DNA from: Zootoca vivipara | Lineage: Eukaryota | NCBI RefSeq assembly: GCF_963506605.1 | Contig: NC_083282.1 | Coordinates: 95,170,001-95,234,000, forward strand | DNA: 64,000 nt | Reading direction: 5' to 3' | Shown here: piece after piece, positions 1,516 to 62,578 of the stretch | How positions within the stretch are numbered: the first letter of the stretch is position 1 | Layout: the number at the start of each line of letters is the position of its first letter | Translations under genes and position numbers: made by a program | Notes under the pieces: model-generated | Database searches by the model: none | What the model saw: only the letters and a program-made list of their open reading frames with translations | Told to the model about the DNA's origin: nothing

Positions 1516-4500
1516 CCCAGCATAGGTGATTCCTGATAGAGTTGTCCAGTGCAGAGAGTTCCTCCTTTATAAGCTTCTGTTTTGAATAAAGAACGCCAAT
1601 AAGATTGAGCCACATTGAGCCGCATGAAATGGAAGTCCATCAACCTCACCAAGAAACTTGCACAGGTACAAACTGACATAATATTTCTGACCAAATGCAA
1701 GAACCTGGATATTGTTCCTAAGGGTCTTAGAATTAAGAACCCTCCTTCAATCAACTTATCCCACAGAATATGCTAGGAAACTTTGCCACACTTTATCCAA
1801 GAAGCTGCTCAAACATCTTATCGGCGTTCTTTATTCAAAACAGAAGCTTATAAAGGAGGAACTCTCTGCACTGCACAACTCTATCAGGAATCACCCAGCC
1901 TGGCAGGAGTTCCACAAGGAAAAACAAACCATTTACCACTCTCAACTGGAGTTACTGAAGAACCGGAAAAATAAAAAACTCTGCAACCTTTCCAACCTAC
2001 AAGCCACTAACCAAAACAAGATCAACAACATTGTCAATCTTTCACAGCAAACACTCAGCCCAGCTGAGGAATCCGTCCTCTCACGGGGTCTATCATTCTG
2101 CCCTGCCAAATCCCCACACATGATTCAGTTCTGCGGGGACCTGGAAGCATTTTTCCGCCGTTTACGCCTGAAAGAGTATTTTCATCACAAACAAGAACAA
2201 GACAAAGTAGAACAAACTACATCCCCACAACACAACACCTCTCAACTTACTGGGGAACAACCATCACCCTCCAAACGCATTAATGAACAGAACGTTGACC
2301 ACCAACTACCACCGAAAAGATGTTACACAAAAAGGGACTCCACGTGGACCCCTCCTGATGGACGCGATACCACACTAGATCTGTACATCGACTGCTTCCG
2401 CCACAGAATCCAAACGGATGTGGCCAGAAAACACCATCACTTACAACAAAATCTAAACCACGCTGAAAGGAGAGCCATAGAAAATCTCAGGAACAACCCA
2501 GACATTATAATTAAAGAGGCGGACAAGGGTGGAGCTGTCGTCATCATGAACAAAACTGATTACATCCAAGAGGCCCCCAGACAACTTTCCAATACCGCCT
2601 TTTACATGAAATTGGACTCAGACCCCACACAAGCATACAAAAAAGAACTGAACAAGATTGTCAAGGAGCTACCCCTACACATCCAAGAACAGATCCTCAC
2701 AAACACACCAGCGGAACCTCGACCAGGAACTTTCTACCTTCTACCTAAAATACACAAACCAGGAAATCCAGGACGCCCCATCATCTCAGGTATTGGCACC
2801 ATTACAGTGGGTGTTTCCGGCTATATGGACTCTGTTCTGAAACCATATGCTATCAGTGCTCCCAGCTACGTACGTGACACCACAGATTTTCTGAGGAAAA
2901 TACAATCTTTGAACAATCTTCCTAACAATACTATACTAGCCACTATGGATGTGGAATCTCTATACACCAACATCCCACACAATGATGGTTTACAAGCTAT
3001 AAGGAACACCATTTCATATAAAACCACAGCAGACTTTGCTACCAAACTCTGCCACTTTGTCCTTACCCACAACCACTTCAAATTTGGTGATGACCTGTTC
3101 CTCCAGATCAGCGGCACAGCCATGGGCACCCGCATGGCCCCACAGTATGCCAACATCTTCATGGCAGATTTAGAACATCGTTTCCTAGACTCCTACCCAC
3201 TCAAACCTCTCTTGTACCTACGATACATTGACAATATTTTTTATTATCTGGACACATGGACAACAGACCCTGGAAACCTTCCACCAGACATTCAATGACT
3301 TTCACCCCACCATCAACCTAACAATGAACCAATCTATGCAATAAATACATTTTTTGGACACTACTATAAAAATACAGGATGGACGTATAGACACCACCTT
3401 ATACAGAAAACCAACTGACCAACAAACATATCTACATGCTTCTAGCTACCATCCCAAACATACCAAACAATCCATCGTATACAGCCAGGCCCTACGTTAC
3501 AACCGCATCTGTTCCAACTCTACAGACAGAGAATCTCACCTAAGAGATCTACAGCAAACCTTTTTAGAACTAAAATATCCACCTGATGAAGTTAAACAAC
3601 AGATCAACAGAGCCAGACTGATACCTAGAGAGAACCTGCTGCAAGACAGACCCAAAAAAGAAAATAACAGAACACCACTAGTCATCACATACAGCTCCCA
3701 AGTTAAAACAGTACAACGCATCATCAGAGATCTACAGCCTCTCCTGGACAATGACAGCTCCCTTTCTCAAGCTCTGGGAGGAAGACCTTTCATTGCCTAC
3801 AGCCACCCAATCTTAAACAACTCCTCACCTACAATAATACAACCACCAGACTTAACATGGACACTGGTACCAGAGCCTGCAATAAACCCAGATGCCAGCT
3901 TTGCTGCCACATACACCCGGACCACACCATTACTGGCCCCAACAACACCCAACATACCATCTCAGGACTATTTAATTGTTCATCTTCTAACATTGTGTAT
4001 GCCATCAAATGCCAACAGTGCCCTTCAGCTCTCTATATTGGACAAACAGGCCAAACCCTACGCCAAAGGATAAATGGACATAAATCTGACATCAGGAACC
4101 ATAAGACTGAAAAACCAGTAGGAGAACACTTCAATCTCCCAGGACATTCTATACAAGATCTCAAAGCAGCTGTTTTATTACAGAGAAATTTCAGGAACAG
4201 ACTGGAAAGAGAAGTTGCTGAATTGGAAATCATTACCAAGCTTAAAACCATGGAACCACCTGGGATGAATAAAGACATCAGATTCTTATCTCATTATGCA
4301 TGATCAAGCTTTCTTTAGCACCTCAGCCCTTGCTTTCCCCCCCCCAGGACTAATTGCAGCCATCAGCAGCCATTAACAGCCATCTACAGGTTTACCACTC
4401 CCATCAGCCCATCACCCATTCCCACCCACCCCCACCACCCTCTGTATATATATAGGGTCTGACACTTCTGTTTCTAGTGTATCTGAAGAAGTGTGCATGC

Positions 4501-4609
4501 ACACGAAAGCTCATACCAAAATATAAACATAGTTGGTCTTTAAGGTGCTACTGAAGGAATTTTTTTATTTTGCTTCGACTCAGACCAACACGACTACCTA
4601 CCTGTAACT
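1516..4609 (+). mobile_element. Penelope-like retroelement (Neptune-type), RT + GIY-YIG endonuclease, frameshifted/inactive
   Basis: N-terminal FLTKCKNLDIVPKGL (~1690-1730). RT motifs PGRPIIS, LATMDVESLYTNIP, GTAMGTRMAPQYAN and YIDN (YIDD mutated, 3224-3235) lie in ORF 1712-3298; thumb region in ORF 3354-4073. Cys-rich linker CNKPRCQLCCH and NIVYAIKC..ALYIGQT GIY-YIG lie in ORF 3857-4303. Frameshifts near 1742, 3240 and 3800. Inverted duplicate at the 5' end. Confidence 0.93.
4479..4516 (+). ncRNA. Minimal type I hammerhead ribozyme in the Penelope 3' UTR
   Basis: GTAT-CTGAAGA-A-GTGTGCATGCACAC-GAAA-GC-TC-ATAC: stem I GTAT/ATAC, core CUGANGA, stem II hairpin, GAAA, palindromic minimal stem III (AGCT), NUH = CUC. 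Predicted cleavage after C4512. Confidence 0.85.
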
Positions 4610-4610
4610 A

Positions 4611-7600
4611 AAATTCATCTTCTTTGCTTTGGCCCAGTTGTCTAATCTGTTAAGGTCATTCTGGTGTGATCCTGTCCTGGTGTGAAGCCACCCCTCCCAA
4701 TTTGGTGTCATATGCAAACTTGATCACGATGCCCTCATTTTTTTTTAAATTATATTTTATTGATTTTATAGTATAAAAAAGAGGAAAAAAGAAAAAAAAG
4801 ACAGACATACAAAAGAACTACTACATAACATATTTACCACTGGCTTCCGCCCACCCTTCCAGAGCCCTCTCCTCCCATCAGAGGGACCCTCGAAAGGCAG
4901 GCAGCCGGCAGTGTTTCCTTTTGTAGTTGAATTTCTCTCCCACCCCTCCCTCCCCTCCCCAGAACCCCCCCCCCTGCCACCGAGAGGCTCTAAGAGAGGG
5001 AACGAATGGGGGGCATCCGTCCAACCAGTTTCCAAACAGAGAAAGAAGAAAAAGGAAAAGAAAGAAAAAGAAAAAAAAGAAAACCAAAAGAAAAAATAGA
5101 GGGGGGGCAAAAAGGAAAAGATCCCCCTAAAAAAGAAAAAGAAAAAAAGAAAAAATAAAGCTAAAAACTGAAAAGAAATAAAAAATAAAAGAAAAGAAAA
5201 AGTAAAAGTAAAAGAAAAAGGACCTCCCCAAACCTCCCCCCTATCCCGACTTCCATTTTCAATTCTTATTCAACAGTATTCTTAATCCCATTCTGTTACT
5301 ACAGAAAAAAAGAAAAATTACCTTATATTATAAAAGCTATCCCAATTTTTAAATCCTCTTAATCAAACTAAATTTATATTTCCGAATCTTTTCATAATCA
5401 AATCTACTCATTACCTTTTTTTTTTGACCAGCCTATCTTTTTTTTCCCCCTCCAAAGAACCTCTTTATTATTCTTACTTTCACAAATTTTTAAACATCGT
5501 TATCATCCCCTCCCCACCCCGGTCACGGCCTTTCCCTTCCAGTCCAGCAAGTTCCAAAGTCGTCAGTCCAGTTATTAGTCCTTTTTGTCTGTCCTGAATA
5601 GTTAAATATTCAATCTTCCTTCAGCCCACCCCCTTCCTAACCTGATTCAAAATCCAAGCTCCTCTATCTCCCCCTCCCCAGTCTCCTTTTCTTCTTTGCC
5701 ATCCATTTTTCTCATGGGTGTTCTGTCTCTCCTGTGACTCTTGCGTTGTTGACTCCTGTGATCCATCTTTATTCTTTTGATTTTCCTTTTTCCCGTCGCT
5801 CAGATCATACAGCCATTCCCCATCCTGTACCCTTTTTCCAGTTAAGACCTTTTCCTGTAATTCTTGTGTTCTTTCTTTAAACAAATCCTCTTTTTGCAAA
5901 TCTTGCTTCTTTCCATTTGGTAAGTCCCGTTCTCTGAGCTCCTGTAAGTCTTGGTTTATTTCCAATAGTTGTTGCTGAGTCTTGTACGTCTCTATTCTGA
6001 GTTCCCATAAGAATCTTATCACTTTGTCCTTGAACGCTGATGTATGTTCTTTCGTTGCCATTTTTCCAGCTTACTGTGGGTGGAGTGAGGCTTGAAAACC
6101 AGGAGATGGTTACAAAAGACATATATTGTCACAAATCCAAACTGGAAACTGTATATAATCCGCAATATGTAACTTCAACTTTAAAATTATTTCAAGCAGT
6201 CAGTCAGAAAGTTTTTAAGTATCAAATCCTTGTTAACATCCATCTTCGCAAACAGCTTACTGTCCTCTCCGGGCTGCCGATTTCGGGGTGGAGAGAGGCT
6301 CTCCCTTTCTTGGAATGCAGGGAATATTAGCCTTAAAATAACTCTCCCCCCTGTACCCTGCCTCCGAAGGTAACTCTTTAAAATAGTCTCTGAGGGAGTT
6401 CAGATAATATACTGCTTTTCGTCGACACTGGTCTCCCTTTTTATTACACTGCTTCTTAAATCAATCAGTGGGAGAAGGTGGCTTCCGTTTTTTCCCTTAC
6501 TCCCGTTTGCCAAATTATAGTCCAATATCGTGGTATAATATTTTCAAGCTTTACTCACGGGTTCCAATTTTTCCGAATCAGCGAATTTGGAAGAATCTGC
6601 CGCTCACCACCACCGGACTCGAAGCTTCACTTTGCTGAGGTAACGCTGTTCTCCAAAATGGCCCCCGCGACTACAACCCTTTCGCTCCGGGGCTCTTATT
6701 AGAGCTCACCAGAGGATCGGGGAATCGCTAAAAAATGGGGCACCGCTGGAGCTTTGTTTCCAGAACTCTCTATCTGGAACTCTTTTGGGGCGCTGCAGCG
6801 CTTTCGCAGCCTTCCCCCCCCCCCTCAGCAAAGCCGGGCTGTCTCAGCGCTCGAGACAAACCCCGCCGGCCAGATCGGGCGACAAACCGGAAGTGTGATC
6901 ACGATGCCCTCAAGCCCATCATCCAAGTCATTGATAAAGATGTTGAATAAGACTGGGCCCAAGACAGAACCCTGTGGCACCCCACTAGTCACTACTCTCC
7001 AGGATGAAGAGGAGCCATTGATGAGCACCCTTTGGGTTCGGTCAGTCAGCCAGTTACAAATCCACTGAATGGTAGCATTGTCTAGCCTGCATTTTACCAG
7101 CTTCTTTACAAGAATATCATGGGGCACCTTGTCAAAGGCCTTGCTGAAATCAAGATAGGCTATATCCACAGCATTCCCTTCATCTACCAGGCTTGTAATT
7201 CTGTCAAAAAATGAGATCAGATTAGTCTGACATGACCTATTTTTCAGAAGCCAAGCTGACTTTTAGTGATCACAGCGTTCCTTTCTAGGTGCTCACAGAC
7301 CGTTTGCTTAATGATCTGCTCTAGAATCTTTCCTGGTATTGATGTCAGACTGACTGGGCGGTAATTGTTTGGGTCCTCTCTTTTCCCCATTTTGAAAATA
7401 GGGACATTTGCCCTCCTCCAGTCTTCTGGGACTTCGCCTGTTCTCCAGGAATTCTCAAAGATTATTGCCAGTGGTTCTGAAATCACCTCTGCCAGTTCTT
7501 TTAATACTCTTGGATGTAGTTCATCTGGCCCTGGAGACTTGAATACATCTAAATTAGCCAAGTATTCTTGTATTACCTCCTTACTTATTCTGGGCTGTGT

Positions 7601-8150
7601 TTCCCCTGCTGAATCATCTGCTCCATATTCTTCAGGTTGGGCATTGTTTTCTTTTTTGGAGAAGACTGAGGCAAAAAAGGCATTGAGTTCTGCCCTTTCT
7701 TTGTCCCCTGTTCGCATTTCACCATCTTCTCCTCCTCTAAGTGACACCGTTTCCTTGTTCTTCCTTTTGCTACCAACATACCCATAAAAGCCCTTTTTGT
7801 TGCTTTTAACCTCTCTAGCAAGCCTGAGTTCATTCTGTGCTTTAGCTTTTCTGACTTTGTCTCTACATGTGCTGGCTATATGCTTGAATTCCTCTCTGGT
7901 GATTTCCCCCTTGGCTGAGTTTGACATCCAACAAATATCAGGATAATTTAAATCCCCCATTACTACTATCTCACTTCCTTTTGAATGTTTGGCCATCAGT
8001 TCCAGGAAGGCATCATCTGTGTCCTCAGTTTGGCTTGGGGATCTATAGTAAACTCCCACAATGAGATCACAGTTATTTTTCTCTCCCTTAATTTTGACCC
8101 AGATACTCTCAACTTGGCTTTGAAGTTTTAAATCCTGGATCTGGTAGATC
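4611..8150 (-). mobile_element. CR1 LINE ORF2 fragment (EN remnant + RT), internally deleted and interrupted by an L1-like insertion
   Basis: ORFs 7244-8209 (VGVYYRSP, VMGDLNYPDI, KSPGPDELHP, NYRPVSLTS) and 6825-7169 ([20 protein letters not shown]). Homology resumes left of 4737. Confidence 0.9.
4738..6895 (-). mobile_element. Non-autonomous L1-like (HAL1-like) retroelement with one short coiled-coil ORF
   Basis: 17-bp TSD TGATCACGATGCCCTCA (4721-4737, 6896-6912). CpG-rich 5' end starting CACTTCCGG; poly(A) tail at ~4738-4750; 146-aa ORF 5621-6061; no RT or EN motifs. Confidence 0.75.
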
Positions 8151-8383
8151 ACTGGACGTCTGTGGCAGATCAATGGCAGATCACTGGCTCCCCCAAAGAA
8201 ACTCAACAACTTTGGCTCCCCTAAAAAAGCTCAACATTTTTGCCCTGCACCCCCCAAAAATGTGGCTTTCCTCCCTAAAAAAAGCTCAACCACCTTGACC
8301 TGAACCCCAAAAAGGGGGGTAGATCACTGCCAATTTTTAACTCTGTGAGTAGATCGCAGTCTCTTGGGAGTTGGCCACCCCTG
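8140..8383. mobile_element. hAT-like non-autonomous DNA transposon fragment
   Basis: Ends in ...GTTGGCCACCCCTG (hAT-type TIR) with internal repeated GTAGATCAC and AAAGCTCAAC units. Left end not resolved. Confidence 0.5.
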
Positions 8384-11091: not shown

Positions 11092-11221
11092 NNNNNNNNN
11101 NNNNNNNNNNNNNNNNNNNNNNNNNNNNNNNNNNNNNNNNNNNNNNNNNNNNNNNNNNNNNNNNNNNNNNNNNNNNNNNNNNNNNNNNNNNNNNNNNNNN
11201 NNNNNNNNNNNNNNNNNNNNN
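11092..11221. other. Assembly gap (130 N)
   Basis: Run of N. Confidence 1.
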
Positions 11222-20438: not shown

Positions 20439-21416
20439 GGCCTCATGCTTCCTCCTCGAGCCGCCTGGCAGTGATGTGCTTGCGATGCCCACTGTGCTTC
20501 CTGAGGGCAGGCGAGAGAAGCCGCCGGGCCCAGCCTGGTCACCCGTGGGCAGTGATGCAGCACAGGATCCTTCCCAGGGGCTCACCTGCTTCCCGTTTCT
20601 GTACTTTAATCTTCTTCTTGCTCTTAGGAATAGTTTGGAAATAAACACGTCCGCCTGACCCCACTGTGTCTCTCTTGAAAGGCAGGGAGGGTGCAAGGGA
20701 AAGGGCTGTTCCGGAACCAAATGTGCAGCAGGCTGGTGGATCCACAGGTCCATGGGGTGGAGCTCCGGGAGGGGAAAAGCAGCCGAAGCTGCTCCCTTCT
20801 CCTCTCTCCCGCTGAGCACGAGCTTTGCAAATTCCCTTGTGGGTGGACACAGGAAGGAAGCAGGCAGGGGGAATCTGATGAGTAATAATAATACTTATTA
20901 CTATTTATTATTTCATAAAATTTTATACAGCGCTTGCTTGTAAAAACCTCAAAGCAGTTTGCAAAAATTATAAGGCAATAAAATTAACAATAATTTAAGG
21001 CTTTCCAAAAAGTTAATATAGCACTAGACTGAAAACAGATTAAGACTGGCAATTAACTAAGCACCTGGACACATCTGGACAGGCATGTCTAAAGAAAAAT
21101 GTTTTTAGCAGGTGCTGAATACAGTGAAGACTCCTGCCTGGTGTCAATAGGCAGGGAGTTCCAAAGTGAAGTGGCTGCCACCCTGAAAAGACTTGAGTCC
21201 TTACAAATGCAGAAAAGGGGTCTTAATGTGCACCTGTAACACAGCCACTTCCGCCAATCAAGGGGGGGGGGACGGGCGATGACACACCCTATTCTCAAGG
21301 CTTACTGTGTAAAGCAGAAGTTACAGGTAGGTAGCCGTGTTGGTCTGAGTAGTCGAAACAAAAAAATTTTAAAAATTCCTTCCAGTAGCACCTTAGAGAC
21401 CAGCTAAGTTTGTCAT

Positions 21417-21774
21417 CCCAGGGACCCAGGTGGCGCTATGGTTAAACCACTGAGCCTAGGGCTTGCTGATCAGAAGGTCGGCGGTTCGAATCCCTGTGAC
21501 GGGGTGAGCTCCCGTTGCTCGGTCCCAGCTCCTGCCAACCTAGCAGTTCAAAAGCACCTCAAAGTGCAAGTAGATAAATAGGTATCGCTCTGGCGGGAAG
21601 GTAAACAGCGTTTCCATGCGCTGCTCTGGTTCACCAGAAGCAGCTTAGTCATGCTGGCCACATGACCTGGAAGCTATACGCCGGCTCCCTTGGCCAATAA
21701 TGCGAGATGAGCGTGCAACCCCAGAGTCGGTCATGACTGGACCTAATGGTCAGGGGTCCCTTTACCTTTACCTT
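21417..21774 (+). mobile_element. Sauria SINE (Squam1)
   Basis: GGGACCCAGGTGGCGCT head, B box GGTTCGAATCC, (TTTACC)n tail, TSD TAAGTTTGTCAT (21405-21416, 21775-21786). Confidence 0.9.
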
Positions 21775-21788
21775 TAAGTTTGTCATAT

Positions 21789-21826
21789 GTATGAGCTTTC
21801 GTGTGCATGCACACTTCTTCAGATAC
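21789..21826 (-). ncRNA. Minimal type I hammerhead ribozyme (second intact copy)
   Basis: Exact reverse complement of 4479-4516. Confidence 0.85.
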
Positions 21827-32700: not shown

Positions 32701-35700
32701 GCTGCTGGAGGTTGGACTAGAGGACCTTTGGGGGACCCTTGCAGTTCTATAGTTCTGTGGCTCGATACCAGTCCAGCTGCCATAAGGAGCTTTGAATGGG
32801 GGTCCCGTCGAGACTCTTGGCAGAGCATAAGTATCTCTGTGTGTGATCTGAACATTGCCCCCAGCTGTTCAGCCTTAAAACAAACCCTCCTCCAGGCAGG
32901 AGGGGCTTCTGCTGACCCCCCCTCCCCTTGTCAGCCTCACCTGTCAAAGATGCGGAAGCACTCAGCCAGCTCCTCCTCGCTTTTTCCCTTGGCATCCTCT
33001 TTCATCTGGCGCACCATCATGACCAAGAACTCCTCGAAGTCGATGGTTCCGCTGCCTGCAGGGAGGGTCCCCGGGACAAGGGTGAGGGTTGCCCCCTCCA
33101 GCCCCCTCCCAGCCTCCCTTCATCCCAGCCCGCCCCCCACCCAAGATGCAGGCCCTCCTCACCATCCTCATCCACCTCCTCTATGATGGCGTCCAGCTCC
33201 TCTTTGGTGGGCGTCTGGCCCAGCATCCTCATGACGGTGCCCAACTCCTTGGTGCTGATGTCGCCGCCCCCATCCGCGTCAAACATGTCAAAGGCGGCTT
33301 TGAACTCTGCAGGAGAGAGAGAGTAGGGGGGGGGGCTAGGGGATGAGCCTGGCAGGAACCAGAGCCAAGTCAACTCAGAGGTTTCCCAGATCCCGCAAGC
33401 CCTGAGTGGCAGGAGGCTGGGATGGATGACCGCTAGGGTCCCTTCTGACTACAATTCTAGCTGGTTTCATTCTTTCTAAAGGGCCAAAGGAGGGGAGGGG
33501 GGAATGGGCTTGCCAACGGGCTAAAAAGAATAATAGAAAAACCATCTGCCCACAACACAGGCCCCTCTCCTTTTTCACCTGAAGCTGTCATTCTATGGAA
33601 AACCTCATGGAGCTTCTGCAGGTGGTAGCAGCTCCTTGGTGTGGGAGGACCCCAAAACAACCCCCCCCCAAATGCATGCATGCACACAATCCCTGCTGTG
33701 CTCAGGCAGATTGGAATGGAGAAGGCCTTCCTGGGGCAACCCCTCCCCAAGTGATAATGCTTCAAACCTCACACAACTCACACGCAGAGGTAGTAGGGAG
33801 TCCTTGGCCAGGGGAGGTCTAGGGGGGGGGGACAAACTGCTAAACACGGTCAGAACTGCAGGCGGCAGAAGTAATCGCCCCTCTGCCCTGGACCTCCCCG
33901 ATTCCAGGCGTTCCCCTTCTGTGTGTGCAGCTGGAGATTCAGGAGCCACCAGAGTGAGAGGAAGATGGTTGCTTGGGTGCAATAGAGGGGTCAATTTTGG
34001 AGGGGCTGGGCAATATTTTGGGTGCTAGAAGAGGGGGTGCCTCCCCCACCCACCCACCCACCCACTCACCCACCCACCTGGCTTTGTACAAGCTCCAGTC
34101 ATGGAATCTGTTAAGCCTCTAAGCCACCCAAGCCACTTGTGGAATGGCTGGGCAGGGCATGGATATTCTTACTATTCTTGCAAAGAGCTCTAGAGGGTAT
34201 AAATGGCTTCGCCTCCCACTTTTATCTCCACAACAACCCCGTGAGGTAGTCGAAACAAAATAAAGTGTGCATGCACACGAAAGCTCATACCAATGACAAA
34301 CTTAGTTGGTCTCTAAGGTGCTACCAGAAGGGAATTTTTTTTTTATTTTGTTTCGACTACGGCAGACCAACACGGCTACCTACCTGTAACTAAACCTGTG
34401 AGGTAGGTTAAGCTGAGAGGCAGTGACTGGCTCCCAAGACCACACCCAGGGAGCTTCAAGACTGTCCTCATCCAACACCCTAACCACTATACCACACTGC
34501 CTCTCAGGGTGCCAGCAAATAAAATATTAGCTTATGACGTTTTGTGGTTACCCCGCCTTCCTCCCTAGTTGGCCCACATCCAAAATGGCCACTTTGCCCC
34601 TCGGCCGAGTCAGGGTGCCTGCTGTGCCCAACCGGGTGCCCCCCGAGGATGCCCCTCAACTCACCCGCGATCATTTCCTCAGTGAGGAAGGACCGGGCTT
34701 CCGCCTGCTGGTCCGTCTGCAAGGCAAGGGGAGGAAGTCACCAAGGGAGCAGAGTCAGGCCCAGCCGGGGCCATGCCCAGGGATGCCCTCCCCACCCCCG
34801 GCTACCTGCATTCCCCTCTGCCATTGCCACTGCTGCTGCTGCTTCTGCCACCTCCTCCTCAGGTGGTTGCTTCTCTCCCGAGACTTTCTTTCCCCAGCCC
34901 ACGAAAAGCCCCTTCTCTTGGCATCACCAGAAAGGGGACTGCTAGCCACTGGAGCTCCAACCCCGCCTTGGCCTCGGCTTGCTCCGCCTGGCATTCTGCA
35001 GGTGGTGCAGCAGAAGGGGATTCACAGAACCCAGCCCCCTGCGACCGGGGTTGCGAGTGCCAGGGTCTTGGGGCAGTGGGCAGGAGGAGCGCTGGGATTC
35101 CTGTTGTGGCTCCTGCATTGCGGCAGGGTTCGACTGGACGACCCCGGGGGTCCCTTCCGATTCCGCAAGAGCATCCCTTGCTCTCGAGAGGCTGGGCGGC
35201 ACATCTCCACCAAGGCTGGCAGAATCCGTCCCTGAGCAGCCCCTGCGTGGGTCCCAGCTTGCAGGTTCCTAAGGTCCATCTTGCAGAGGCAGCCAGCTTT
35301 GGCCCAGAGTTGCGCAGCAGCCCCAGGCTTCTTTGGACTTCGCCAGGATTCCTGGGACCTGAGAGAGAGGGACCTCACGGGGCCCACAGTGGCTGGCCAG
35401 AGGAGAGGATGGCGGTCCTTGACGGAGGGATGCTATTCTTAGCAGCGCCTGCCGGGTGCCTCCTTCTAGGGTGCTCAGCAGGCCGCCAGCCAGCTGCTCC
35501 AGCACCTGTTGGCTGGCAGATTGGGTTACTCCTTCGAGCCGGGTCTTGTAGCTCAGCGGCCGACAGGCAGGCAGGCAGGCAGGGTTCCTGGGGCGGCTTG
35601 GCTTTCTCCACGGCCATCCGGCTCCATCCTTCATGTCCTTGGCCAGGCTTTGCGAAGGGTGCAATGACCCCCTGGGCAGCCCCCCACCCGCCCAGATCCA

Positions 35701-42474: not shown

Positions 42475-42822
42475 TACTTTCTTTTCTCTGTCCTGAATCT
42501 TCCAAAGGTCAGCTTCATTGGGTGGCCACAAGTTCAAATGTTGGGAGGAGAAAAACTATTTCTCCAAGCACAATATTATTTATAGAGGTTGGCTGGGGTA
42601 CACAGGAGAAAGGGAGGTACCCCGTTGAAGTCTGGTGAGGCAACGTGGTGTAGTGGTTAGAGCGTCAGACCAGGGTTTGAGCCTCCACCTGACCATGAAG
42701 CTTTTTTAAATTTGATGAAACATTGTATTTAATTATTTTGCTGGAAACCCAGCCAGATGGGTGGGGTATATAAATGATAAATAATTATTATTCCTCCCTT
42801 TCAGCCTAACTTACTTCACAGG

Positions 42823-42973
42823 TACAGGTAGGTAGCCGTGTTGGTCTGAGTCGAAGCAAAATAAAAAAATTCCTTCAGTAGCACCTTAAAGACCAACTAA
42901 GTTTTTATTTTGGTATGACCTTTCGTGTGCATGCACACTTATTGGTATCTGAAGAATTTTTATTTATTTTTGC
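42823..42973 (-). mobile_element. Short Penelope-tail copy with hammerhead split by inversion
   Basis: Reverse complement of 4489-4606, followed by GTATCTGAAGAA in the opposite orientation; 11-bp TSD TACTTCACAGG (42812-42822, 42974-42984). Confidence 0.85.
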
Positions 42974-49054: not shown

Positions 49055-52000
49055 ATGGCCTCCCGCATCCTGCACCGCCTGAGGCATGCACTGACCGGAG
49101 AGGGCGAGCGGGACGGGTTAGCCGGCTGCAGCTCGGAAGCGGAAGAGTTCCCAGAAAGCTCCGAGCTGGAGGATGACACTGAGGGCCTCTCCACGCGGCT
49201 CAGCGGGACGCTGAGCTTCACCAGCAACGATGAGGAGGAAGAGGAGGATGAGGACATTGGCGTGGCTGGGCAAGCGCAGCCCCCAGAGCCGGACCTGCTG
49301 GGCGAAGACACGGAGGACGCAGGTAGGGCCCTGGAGCCGGCAGCAGATAGGGTGGTTTGCGGGCACATGGTCAGTGTGCAGGTGGCCCCTGAACAGCATA
49401 GGAGAGTACATTGGGCAGGGGCTTGCGGTTAAGGAACTGCCGGCACCCTCTCCCATTCCTCACAAGTGTGTCGAGTCAGGAGAGAGGAGGGCAAAGGGGG
49501 CAGCGCCTGCCCCGTGGTGCCAGCCACGTCTCAGCACCTTCAGAAGCAATTAGCCCACTTGGCAGGACGATCACTCACAGGCGCAATGCTGCGGAACACT
49601 GGGTCCAGTTCTGGTCGCCTCGCCCCCAAAGGATGCTGTAGAGAAGGGCCGGGCAAGCAAGAGGATCCCGGGGGAAGGGGCTTTTTAGAGAAAAGGCAAG
49701 AGGTCACATGACGGAAGTTTATGGAAATGATGCAGAGCAGGGAAAGTTGATATCATAGAATCATAGAGTTGGAAGAGACCACAAGGGCCATCCAGTCCAA
49801 CCCCCTGCCAAGCAGGAAACACCATCAAAGCATTCTTGACATATGCCTGTCAAGCCTCTGCTTAAAGACCTCCAAAGAAGGAGACTCCACCCACACTCCT
49901 TGGCAGCAAATTCCACTGCCGAACAGCTCTTACTGTCAGGAAGTTCTTCCTAATGTTTAGGTGGAATCTTCTTCCTTGAAGTTTGAATCCATTGCTCCGT
50001 GTCCGCTGGGAAAGATATAGAAGTGTTTGCCTTCCTCTCTCACAACACTAGCACTTGTGTGGCTTTAAAAGTGGATTAGACAAATTCAGGGAGGAGGAGA
50101 GGGCTGGCAACTAGCCACAATAGCTCTGCTCTGCCTCCACGGTCAGAGAAAGAATTGCTTCTGAATCCCAGTTGCTGGAAACCTCAGGTGTGGAGAGTGT
50201 GGCTCTTGTGCTCAGATCCTGCTTGTGGGCTTCCTCTAATGGGCATCTGATTGGCCACTGTAAGAAGGAGATGGCCTGATCCTGCAGGTTCTTTTTCTGT
50301 GTTTGGTCCAAGCTCTTCTCCAAGCCAGAAACAGGACTTTAGCTTGAGCTCCGGCAGACCAGGAAGCAGGGACCCCCCCCCCTCCCAGAGCTTGACATCT
50401 GCTTTCTTCCTTTTCTGCCCCCCCCCCCCCGCTGCAGAGCACAGCCCCCCGACGGAGCGCAGGGGCAGCAACCTGCTCACCCGGCAGCTGCAGGAGCTCT
50501 GGAGGAAATCGCGGGGCAGCTTCGTGCCCCAGCGCCTCCTGTTCGAGGTCACCAGCGCCAACGTGGTCAGCGAGCGGAACTCCAAGTACGTGGTGAGTGA
50601 GATGGGGGGGGGCCCAAGGAAGGAAACCCTCCCCCCAGCCTGGGAAAGAACCTGGGATTGGAGGGGCAGCAAAAACAAGAAGGGAGAAGGGCCCAACATC
50701 TAGCAGGCTGGGGGCGGGGGGGAGATATTTGAGAGAGAGAAGCTGCCTCTCCTGGCCTTAAGACAGCCAAATGCCCATGTACAGGTGTTCTTGGGGTCCC
50801 CCCTGCCCGAGGCAGTTCCAACTCTATAACCAGGAGAAAAAAGGGGGCGGTCAGACTTTGCCTGCCCCACCCTCCTCTGTCTTTTTGGTGGTGGCACCCG
50901 CCCTGTGGAACACTCTCCCATCAGATGTCAGGGAAATAAACAACTATCTGACTTTTAGAAGATATCTGAAGGCAGCCCTGTTTAGGGGAGCTTTTAATGT
51001 GTGACGTTTTATCGTGTTTTTAATATTCTGTTGGGAGCCGCCCAGAGTTACCCAGAGCAGGGTATAAATAAATAAATTGTTGTTGTTGTTATTATTATTC
51101 TAAGGAAGACTGGAGTTGCCTCTTCTTGCACCCACCATGCCTTATTGGGAGGGTGGGGGTGTCTTGTAGGGTGCCTAGCCCTGACTATTTTCTCTTTTTC
51201 CTTGTGCTGCCACGGTTTGGGCAGAAGAGCCTCAGGTAACTTTCCCTGCCTGGATTTCTCACCCCCCCCCCTTGCTGCTTGGGGATCTGTCTGCGGAAGG
51301 GGGGAGGTAGGCTCACGCAGCGGGAAGCCAGGGAGAGGGGCATGCCTCCCTGTTTGTCTTGCTGCGGGGTGGGGAGAGGGTTACGGGATTGTGCCCCTTT
51401 CCGGGCAGCCCCTCACCACTGCCCCTGTCCCGTCCCACAGCTCTACACCGTCTACTTGATCCGCGCGGGGCAGTTCGACAAGGCGCCTGCCTGCATCTCC
51501 CGCCGCTACTCTGACTTCGAGCGGCTGAACCGGCACCTGCGCCGGCACTTCTGCGGCGACATGGCGGGCGTCTCCTTCCCCCGGAAGCGGCTTCGGCGCA
51601 ACTTTGCGGCCGAGACCATCGCCAAGCGCAGCCGCGCCTTCGAGCAGTTCCTGTCCCACCTGCATTCGCTGCCGGAGATCCGACGCTCGGCCGACTACCT
51701 GGAGTTCTTCTTCCTGCGCGACCTGCAGGCGGCGCAGTGCCTGACGTGCTCCGGGAGGTACCCAGAGGCCCTGGCAGCCTGGGCCAACGCCCACCAGCTG
51801 CAGGAGAGGCTGGGCGCCTGCCGCTCGGGCCACTTCCTGCTGACGCTGGCCGGCCTGGCTGTCTGCCACCAGGAGCTTGGCCAGGCCGGGGAGGCGCACG
51901 CTGCCTGCGAACGGGCCCTGTGTCTCCTGGAGGCCCAGGACAGTCACCCTCTGCTGGCCCCCTTCCTGCAGGCCCACATCCGCCTCTCCTGGGTGCTGGG

Positions 52001-52112
52001 CAGGGACAAGCGCCAGGCCGAGGCCCGGCTGCAGCGACTGCAGGAGGCTGGCGGGGCGGAGATGCACCCGCCCACACTGAAGGAACTGCTCATCAAACAG
52101 CCCCTGCCCTGA
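49055..52112 (+). CDS. SNX21: Sorting nexin 21 (PX + PXB domains)
   Basis: Coding exons 49055-49322, 50438-50592, 51441-52112. [67 protein letters not shown] at 52723-52728. Confidence 0.95.
49753..50007 (-). mobile_element. Young CR1 3' end
   Basis: Reverse complement of the CR1 tail. Confidence 0.88.
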
Positions 52113-57802: not shown

Positions 57803-60409
<2,607 letters not shown>

Positions 60410-61294: not shown

Positions 61295-62578
61295 TTTTTA
61301 AAAAAAAACAATTTATTAGGTTTTCCAATTAACACACATTTATAAACATCCAACCAAAACATACAAGCATTCAAAACTTCACAATAACATACATTACTCT
61401 TTTGACCTTTCTCACTATCCTCTGTTTACCAAGCTCCGCCGAGCTTGACTTCCCTCCCTCCCCTCAATAGGTTTTCTAATCCGAGCTTATCCCGCAGTTC
61501 CTTTATGTCTTCCCTTTAAAGTCAATTCGCAGGATTTATTTCAACCCTGCAAGAGTTTTTAAACTTCTACAGTTCTTTTCCATATAGTCCACATATTTAC
61601 TCCAATCTTTTAGGAACCTTGCTTCCCCCTGGTTCCGAATCCCGCTAGTCAGTCTCGCTAATTCTGCATAATCCGTCATCTTTGTCTGCCACTCTCCAAT
61701 CGTCGGTAAGTCCTGCGTCTTCCATTTTTGGGCTAATAATGTTCTTGCCGCGGTTGTTGCATACAGAAATAATACATTGTCCTCTTTATTAATTTCTTGA
61801 CCTATCATTCCTAGCAAGAATGATTCAGGTTTTTTAGGGAAAGTATATTTAAAAATCTTCAATTCATTATATATCATTTCCCAAAATTCTTTCACTTTAT
61901 CGCATTTCCACCACATATGATAAAAATCTCCTTCCTTCTCCTTACATTTCCAGCACATTCTATTACCCATCCTATACATTTTAGATAGTTTTACTGGAGT
62001 TAAATACCATCTATATATCATCTTCCAGATATTCTCTTTCAAGGCGGTACATGCGGTAAATTTTAATATTTGATTCCATAGTTTCAACCACATATCATAT
62101 TCAATATTATGCCCAAAATCTTTTGCCCATTTAATCATCACCTCTTTTGTCAATTCATCTTTTGTATACCATTCTAACAACAGATCATACATTTTGGACA
62201 ATAATTTTGTTTTGCCTTCTAACAGCTCTATATGGAATTTGGACCTTTTATCCTCAAAACCTATCTTTTTATCTTTTGAGAATATATCATTTATTTGATA
62301 GTATTGCAACCAACTAGTCAGAGAGTCTTTGATTTCTTCATACGTTTTCAATTTCCATCCTTGTTCTGATTTACTTAAGATTTTTTCATATGTTGGTCTC
62401 TCCCCTTCCATATTGACCTTTTTTACTGTAAATACCTCCACTGGTGAAATCTACCATGGGGTCTTAGTCTCTAACAGCAATTTATTTATTTCCCATACTT
62501 CAAACAGCGATCTTCTTATCACATGGTTCGTAAATCCTTTATGTGTTTTTTTCTTATCGTACCATAAATATGCATATT
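61295..62578 (-). mobile_element. 5'-truncated young L1-clade LINE
   Basis: Open 301-aa ORF2 C-terminus (61536-62441); 17-bp TSD TTGTGTTTCAATTCTCT (61278-61294, 62579-62595). Confidence 0.93.

Follow-up and report, generated by a model that had tools for sequence, protein, structure and literature searches.

A minimal hammerhead ribozyme of a lizard Penelope-like element, its probable position at the RNA start and its possible part in the choice of RNA template

Background

What does a hammerhead ribozyme do for the Penelope-like element (PLE) that carries it? This question is raised by a 38-nt motif of the lizard Zootoca vivipara, located at 4479-4516 (+) of the window analysed here (the whole stretch of 64,000 nt of contig NC_083282.1, positions 95,170,001 to 95,234,000 of the forward strand, assembly GCF_963506605.1; all positions below refer to it). 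Minimal hammerhead ribozymes (min-HHRs) were described in the pLTRs of metazoan PLEs, including an example from Chrysemys picta, and in the available sections of that work the min-HHR monomer gave no cleavage, dimers gave low cleavage and a circle model was proposed (Cervera and de la Pena 2014, PMC4209133). In the available sections on the Anolis Poseidon element PAc, the ribozyme cuts only with the ORF protein, uncut RNA is the main insertion template and cleavage is not required for insertion in vitro (Frangieh et al. 2024, PMC11167929). The role of PLE hammerheads is stated as still unclear in the available text of PMC8557442. With its class and a close reptile homologue already published, the Zootoca motif by itself is ordinary, and the present analysis concerns mainly where the genomic copies of its element begin and end.

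Results

The window sequence at 4479-4516 (+) reads GTAT CTGAAGA A GTGTGCATGCACAC GAAA GC TC ATAC and was assigned to the minimal type I hammerheads from this sequence, from the consensus in Fig. S3 of PMC4209133 and from conservation and covariation. On the plus strand, stem I (4479-4482 paired with 4513-4516) has 4 bp, the core C3-A9 lies at 4483-4489 and is followed by an extra A at 4490, stem II (4491-4504) is a 14-nt palindrome, and then come GAAA (G12-A15.1, 4505-4508), G15.2/C16.2 (4509-4510), U16.1 (4511) and C17 (4512), with the cut predicted between 4512 and 4513. A first-pass annotation of this DNA, made from the letters, had named all these core elements together with the 4-bp stem I and the palindromic stem II, and the sequence confirms each of them. 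Indeed, the order CUGANGA ... GAAA ... UH is that of type I, closed by stem I, and the additional min-HHR traits are present, namely A4490 between A9 and G10.1, the G4491-C4504 pair, the palindromic G4509/C4510 and no loop 3. The designation as a minimal, dimer-type PLE hammerhead likewise holds, as the motif fits the published consensus and RT and GIY-YIG domains lie upstream. The Rfam hammerhead search that the annotation had called for returned nothing, with 0 matches at gathering score over the whole window and no hammerhead up to E 10 in 4300-4700.

The lone 38-mer folds into stem I and a stem II of 5 bp whose loop is CAUG, stem III being loopless, and the stability of this fold is that of shuffles (z -0.44). 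The same 38 letters were found, as the annotation had claimed, at 21789-21826, there on the minus strand and in a truncated copy of another subfamily. Exact copies of the 38-mer number 13,219 across the 1.44-Gb genome versus 0 for its reversed control, so that it is not a product of chance; the 20-mer just downstream of the ribozyme gives 36,341 exact genomic matches. The stretch 4479-4516 is almost certainly a PLE min-HHR, for which self-cleavage is predicted. Note that a relaxed hammerhead pattern gave 621 matches versus 66 for the control, mostly corresponding to a string of an RTE/BovB-like LINE (L124-L149; e.g., L137 at ~1500-1535), which lies in the 5' part of the LINE just before the endonuclease domain and holds both core boxes and stem II. 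This string, present in several hundred copies, was rejected as a hammerhead, its stem I being out of register and its 15.2/16.2 non-palindromic, and is probably a chance look-alike.

The element that hosts the ribozyme has a broken PLE ORF at 1610-4303 (+), recognised from its frames, its Pfam domains (RVT_1, E 2e-8; GIY-YIG, E 1e-5) and its intact relatives, which is devoid of the first codons and of the 5' pLTR and is frameshifted near 3300 and again near 3800. Where its 5' side is truncated, a short piece of the element's own ORF is inverted (1541-1605 (-), blastn self-match 97%), and such inversions are typical of PLEs. The rest of the pLTR, delimited by the ATG junction and the copy ends, occupies 4517-4610 (+) and is 5' UTR in intact copies. 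Because the 5' pLTR is missing, the frame is shifted and no ORF stands behind 4610, the ribozyme copy at 4479 is the dead 3' end of a broken element. Relatives with 98% identity have an open 901-aa ORF; among 10 long relatives, 7 have this open ORF and 7 contain two intact ribozymes ~3.0 kb apart, and in intact copies the pLTR continues into the ATG, 137 nt after G4479. The window copy and the intact copies all have a CX4CXXC linker between RT and endonuclease. A CX2-5CxxC linker marks the Neptune and Nematis clades (PMC8557442), and the PLE clades reported for vertebrates are Neptune and Poseidon; the host element can be classed as Neptune-type by its linker, which Nematis shares. A single ORF with RT and, at its C terminus, GIY-YIG, as well as pLTRs, partial tandems, inversions and a 30-40-bp tail were all found, and features of this kind (e.g., the 30-40-bp tail) are listed for endonuclease-bearing PLEs in PMC8557442. 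As for a non-LTR retrozyme, the window copy ends a coding element, and no non-coding head-to-tail array was found there. Elsewhere, locus L118 (5800-7800) contains four head-to-tail 598-bp units with an intact ribozyme in each, i.e., a retrozyme-like partial tandem of this family.

Other copies of the pLTR occur in the window, and the far end of the 21789 copy as well as the two short copies described below had escaped the annotation. The copy with the identical hammerhead at 21789-21826 (-) has its far end at 21319-21416 (-), separated by a 358-bp SINE-like insertion (21417-21774 (-), with a 12-bp target duplication) that sits 14 nt behind the ribozyme and that we take to be a Sauria SINE. 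SINE-like elements were also observed at the same spot in locus L023 and slightly further on in L025 and L220, and this part of the pLTR is a possible insertion hot spot. Two short copies start inside the ribozyme, one at the start of stem II (34263-34394 (+)) and one with C16.2 changed to G (42820-42943 (-)). The window also holds long open frames at 58220-60409 (-), 51240-52112 (+), 7244-8230 (-) and 61536-62450 (+), of which one, of 729 aa, presumably resembles a SWIM-finger gene and the others presumably a PX-domain sorting nexin exon, a CR1-like RT fragment and an L1-like ORF2 end; 130 N at 11092-11221 are distant from the hammerhead.

From the identity of two motifs in diverged surroundings, the first-pass annotation had suggested constraint. 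Conservation was evaluated on copies chosen via the downstream 20-mer and not via the ribozyme (the 100 that come first in the list for contig 1, together with the copies in fetched stretches), which gave 125 copies, or 122 once 3 tandem duplicates were removed, and diversity was computed in the 49 collinear copies, window copy included, that reach at least 95 nt upstream. In these 49 copies, diversity is 0.30 at 4440-4478 and 0.046 in the ribozyme; it is 0.07-0.08 in the 3' flank, nearly as low as in the ribozyme and partly so since the copies were picked on this flank. Constraint thus extends beyond the ribozyme to the 3' flank. The only subfamily-level change in the ribozyme concerns N7, which is A, C or U across subfamilies and families, H17 being C or U, and individual copies decay freely, most often at the C11.1-G12 CpG (7/49). 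In a sister family, stem II pair 6 has changed from C-G to U-A, a compensatory change read by eye, and stem II is near-palindromic with one central mismatch. An older related family (48 pattern matches versus 0 for the control) has, again by eye, the stem I pair U-A replaced by C-G in 7 of 20 copies, altered stem II pairs and U17, and its stem II loop is mostly non-palindromic. Constraint is thus borne out in the source lineages, where only N7 varies across subfamilies and related families have compensatory pairs; conservation across species rests on the published alignment. The stem II palindrome, on which the annotation had laid weight, fared unevenly: the near-palindrome of the sister family and a stable computed self-duplex speak for it, but its importance is weakened by the mostly non-palindromic loop of the older family, and a self-duplex is possible for any short-looped hairpin. 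Decayed older hammerhead families were also seen in the same genome (L152, L216, L217; L323-L342), and no ORF remnant was found beside L152, L216 and L217.

Among the computed dimers, the 14-bp self-duplex of stem II is the most stable (-28 to -30.6 kcal/mol); the double-hammerhead fold (-11.1 kcal/mol) is not more stable than two monomers (-12.0 kcal/mol). An upstream hairpin that would block the ribozyme in read-through RNA lowers the stem II probability from 0.97 to 0.04 for the window copy, and it was rejected as a general switch, its effect being inconsistent in five other copies. Several head-to-head pairs are joined within the stem II palindrome (L083, L046/L047, L053/L054 and L086), L083 being perfectly symmetric, and the palindrome may promote cDNA fold-back.

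The positions at which copies begin are concentrated around the first base of stem I and not at the predicted cut. Expressed per 100 nt at risk, 5' ends amount to 3.31 at 4470-4482 (29 events; Poisson p 2e-19), ~10x the background, versus 0.14 (1 event) at the cut, 4511-4516; intermediate values are 1.48 at 4483-4498, 0.60 at 4499-4510, 0.57 at 4432-4469 and 0.33 further upstream. Of the 122 copies, 69 belong to head-to-head pairs and 1 begins within 3 nt of the cut. Genome-wide, C17 is missing before stem I in 342 of ~19,100 copies versus 173 at a control position, and 8 of 20 sampled C17-lacking copies are true ends when read by eye. With so few copies starting at the cut, linear RNA cut at C17 is a rare template at most.

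In addition, an extra G precedes copies starting at G4479 in 2,505 of the 3,764 non-T cases genome-wide (A and C together, 1,259), a comparison in which CpG decay reduces the C count, and in 21 of 27 sampled copies with this start. Upstream sequence is unrelated in 29 of 30 G4479-start copies that have the G, and in 6-7 of these 30 the G could derive from the inverted partner; in a stricter sample, a preceding G was found in 6/10 cases at 4479 versus 15/52 at other breaks (p 0.07). For L1 and SVA, an untemplated 5' G marks the reverse-transcribed cap (PMC4859970). A TATA-like box, a putative promoter element, is located at 4449-4456 (+), 30 nt before G4479, and of 64 collinear contexts upstream, 39 show it at -30 or -31 (22 have no match and 3 have it elsewhere), the sequence between the box and G4479 differing by subfamily. 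We consider it probable that RNA starts at 4479 (+), the first base of stem I. Given the TATA-like box, the 5'-end pile-up and the extra G, the ribozyme likely occupies positions +1 to +38 in a capped RNA, and since copy 5' ends pile up at this start and not at the cut, with the extra G, the short copies would come from uncut RNA. The AG at 4476-4477 was rejected as a splice acceptor, since one subfamily carries AC at these positions and different copies are joined to different upstream sequences. A limited literature search returned no publication on a TATA start or a cap-derived G at a PLE hammerhead, and such a report may be in print.

At their 3' side, the 125 copies divide into 62 that stop close to the T-run, 62 that contain the tail and 1 that continues further, and the ends near 4570 or near 4610 (40-bp 'tail') would represent internal starts of reverse transcription. 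The pLTR-ORF junctions, 113 in number, fall into two kinds, i.e., 81 with a short ORF stub only (median ~46 nt) and 32 with at least 450 nt of ORF. Most stub ends lie 36-58 nt past the ATG, and lesser groups lie near 160 and 200 (L183-L212, L353-L402), and these ends are likely more internal reverse-transcription starts besides 4570 and 4610. Of the 81 stub copies, 43 have the next unit starting at the 5' edge of the ribozyme, 8 have it starting within the ribozyme and 1 has it starting at the cut, while for the other 29 it starts at another place or nowhere; 3 of the 81 extend upstream of the start site. The long copies were retrieved with queries holding no sequence upstream of the ATG region, and among the best matches listed, in which duplicates are possible, 23 of 32 run seamlessly past the start site and 2 stop there. 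Among copies reaching the 5' edge, 23 of 25 long ones (best matches listed) continue past it, against 15 of 18 short ones that end there (Fisher p 6e-7, the long copies possibly not being independent insertions). A template without an end at the start site is needed for the long copies, because a capped linear pLTR-ORF-pLTR RNA should stop them at its cap. Such an endless template could be a cut-and-ligated circle or a tandem read-through RNA, and both would fit the seamless long copies equally.

Two raw RNA-seq runs labelled as the same species were also considered, ~6% of each being mapped in a single round. On both strands, 4473-4605 is covered ~8 to 25x more deeply than the sequence upstream. 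Of the mapped reads, 83-87% continue into unlike sequence, so that they are mostly element fragments inside host transcripts. In these ~6% of two runs, no pile of starts or ends was found at 4479 or at 4512/4513, the sole peak being 23 starts at 4455, and the reads give no support to the start site or to cleavage. RNA ends, those at cleavage sites included, are poorly shown by standard libraries.

Discussion

Our results suggest a reading that we hold to be about evenly balanced, in which the pLTR hammerhead would be the first 38 nt of the capped PLE RNA and would cut rarely, as a pair and with protein help. The upstream TATA box would start the RNA at G4479, most RNAs would stay uncut, and reverse transcription would begin ~90, 130 or 180 nt inside the RNA and proceed to the cap, the uncut template giving rise to the tens of thousands of dead ~130-bp copies. 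In an intact pLTR-ORF-pLTR RNA, the two ribozymes, 3.0 kb apart, might pair via AGCU, a step that we hold less surely; both paired ribozymes would then cut after C17, the 34-nt capped leader would be dropped, and the unit-length RNA thus freed would be closed into a circle by a host ligase. Copying round this circle would pass the old start site and rebuild the upstream promoter, which a capped linear RNA could not carry at its front. As to cut-and-circle being the selected function of the ribozyme, we are equally inclined to accept and to doubt it on these sequence data. Somewhat more tentatively, the hammerhead at +1 might act as a template switch, in which uncut capped RNA would yield dead SINE-like ends with a cap-derived G and doubly cut RNA would yield a 3-kb circle with the promoter rebuilt.

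The same positional evidence (5'-end pile-up, extra G and TATA-like box) would also suit a ribozyme that acts on expression and not on copying, cap removal either shutting the RNA down as a feedback of the ORF protein or permitting cap-independent translation of the ORF, 103 nt downstream of the cut. Cleavage of the Anolis element is indeed protein-assisted and dispensable for insertion in vitro (PMC11167929), and self-cleavage in viral 5' UTRs permits cap-independent translation, as reported in the available part of PMC13725137. The long seamless copies would then result from read-through of tandem arrays, and tandem repeats are present (598-bp period at L118), or from homologous template switching. 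However, in the short units the jump leads from the 5' edge to unrelated ORF positions, so homologous switching does not look the rule, and a stop at the start site is very rare among the long copies (2 of 25 among the best matches listed). We judge an action on expression unlikely, though worth serious attention.

Two further explanations appear less probable still. If the motif no longer cut and were kept as a structural or protein-binding 5' end of the RNA, the pile-up of ends would reflect stalling of the reverse transcriptase; the conservation of the whole terminal 130 nt, the reads (~6% of two runs) without ends at the cut and the spread of Naiad PLEs without hammerheads (PMC8557442) are in line with this. 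But variation within the core is limited to N7, with C or U at H17, which is the pattern predicted by catalysis, and a stalled enzyme would end its copies on the fold's 3' side, while stalling leaves the extra G and the TATA at -30 unexplained, which makes the loss of cutting improbable. Very improbable, in our opinion, is a scheme in which both palindromes drive RNA-RNA pairing and the cleavage of tandem transcripts releases linear unit RNAs as templates. The 14-bp self-duplex, the near-palindrome kept by the sister family and the head-to-head arrangement of 69/122 copies, many of them joined inside stem II, would agree with it; yet it expects copies starting at 4513, which were found once in 122 and once in 81, the C17-lacking copies exceed the control only as stated above (342 versus 173, with 8/20 true ends), and the loop of the older family is mostly non-palindromic.

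Returning to the paired, rarely cutting ribozyme at the RNA start, several known systems can be compared with it. The Zootoca motif shares with the min-HHRs in the available sections of PMC4209133 the CUGANGAH core, the extra base before stem II, G10.1-C11.1, the absence of loop 3, the palindromic 15.2/16.2, a short stem I, the pLTR location and thousands of solo and opposite-strand copies, and the Chrysemys picta motif (Fig. S3) has an identical core and differs from the lizard motif by compensatory pairs. In contrast to these min-HHRs, the lizard stem II loop has 4 nt and is palindromic, the motif is much more numerous and its copies much more uniform (13,219 identical), and a TATA-driven start, where the motif seems to lie in the lizard, is not described for it in the available sections of that paper. 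With PAc of Anolis carolinensis (available sections of PMC11167929), the element has in common a lizard PLE host, a ribozyme near the ORF start, an internal reverse-transcription start, a 30-40-bp tail, an uncut main template and RNA-seq ends absent at the cut. However, PAc belongs to the Poseidon clade and has its ATG inside the ribozyme, whereas the Zootoca element has a Neptune-type linker, an ATG 137 nt after the first base of the ribozyme and, unlike PAc as there described, a likely TATA promoter just upstream. The Penelope of Drosophila virilis likewise has its promoter within the pLTR, supplied by the tandem layout (Schostak et al. 2008, PMC2377424, available sections), but this promoter is an internal one that has no TATA box, and an intron follows 46 bp past the start, while the likely Zootoca promoter lies upstream of the start and must consequently be rebuilt from the transcript's 3' end. 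Animal non-LTR retrozymes also have type I hammerheads that need dimers in vertebrates and derive from PLE pLTRs (PMC7229834; bioRxiv 10.64898/2026.07.22.740005; available sections of both), and their circles are made by RtcB (PMC7229834); these retrozymes are non-coding tandem arrays, whereas the Zootoca copies are mostly 130-bp ends, solo or head-to-head, that derive from an autonomous element.

Conclusions

What this analysis adds is the mapping of ends, which leads the question of PLE hammerhead function to direct tests. According to the proposed mechanism, capped RNAs should begin at the first base of stem I, both a capped fragment of 34 nt and a circle of 3.0 kb should occur, and a core mutant should lose the more-than-unit copies. 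The family is young, with intact copies and tens of thousands of ends, and these are of two kinds that point to two RNA templates. If the template switch were true, these thousands of insertions would form a fossil record that answers what PLE hammerheads are for.
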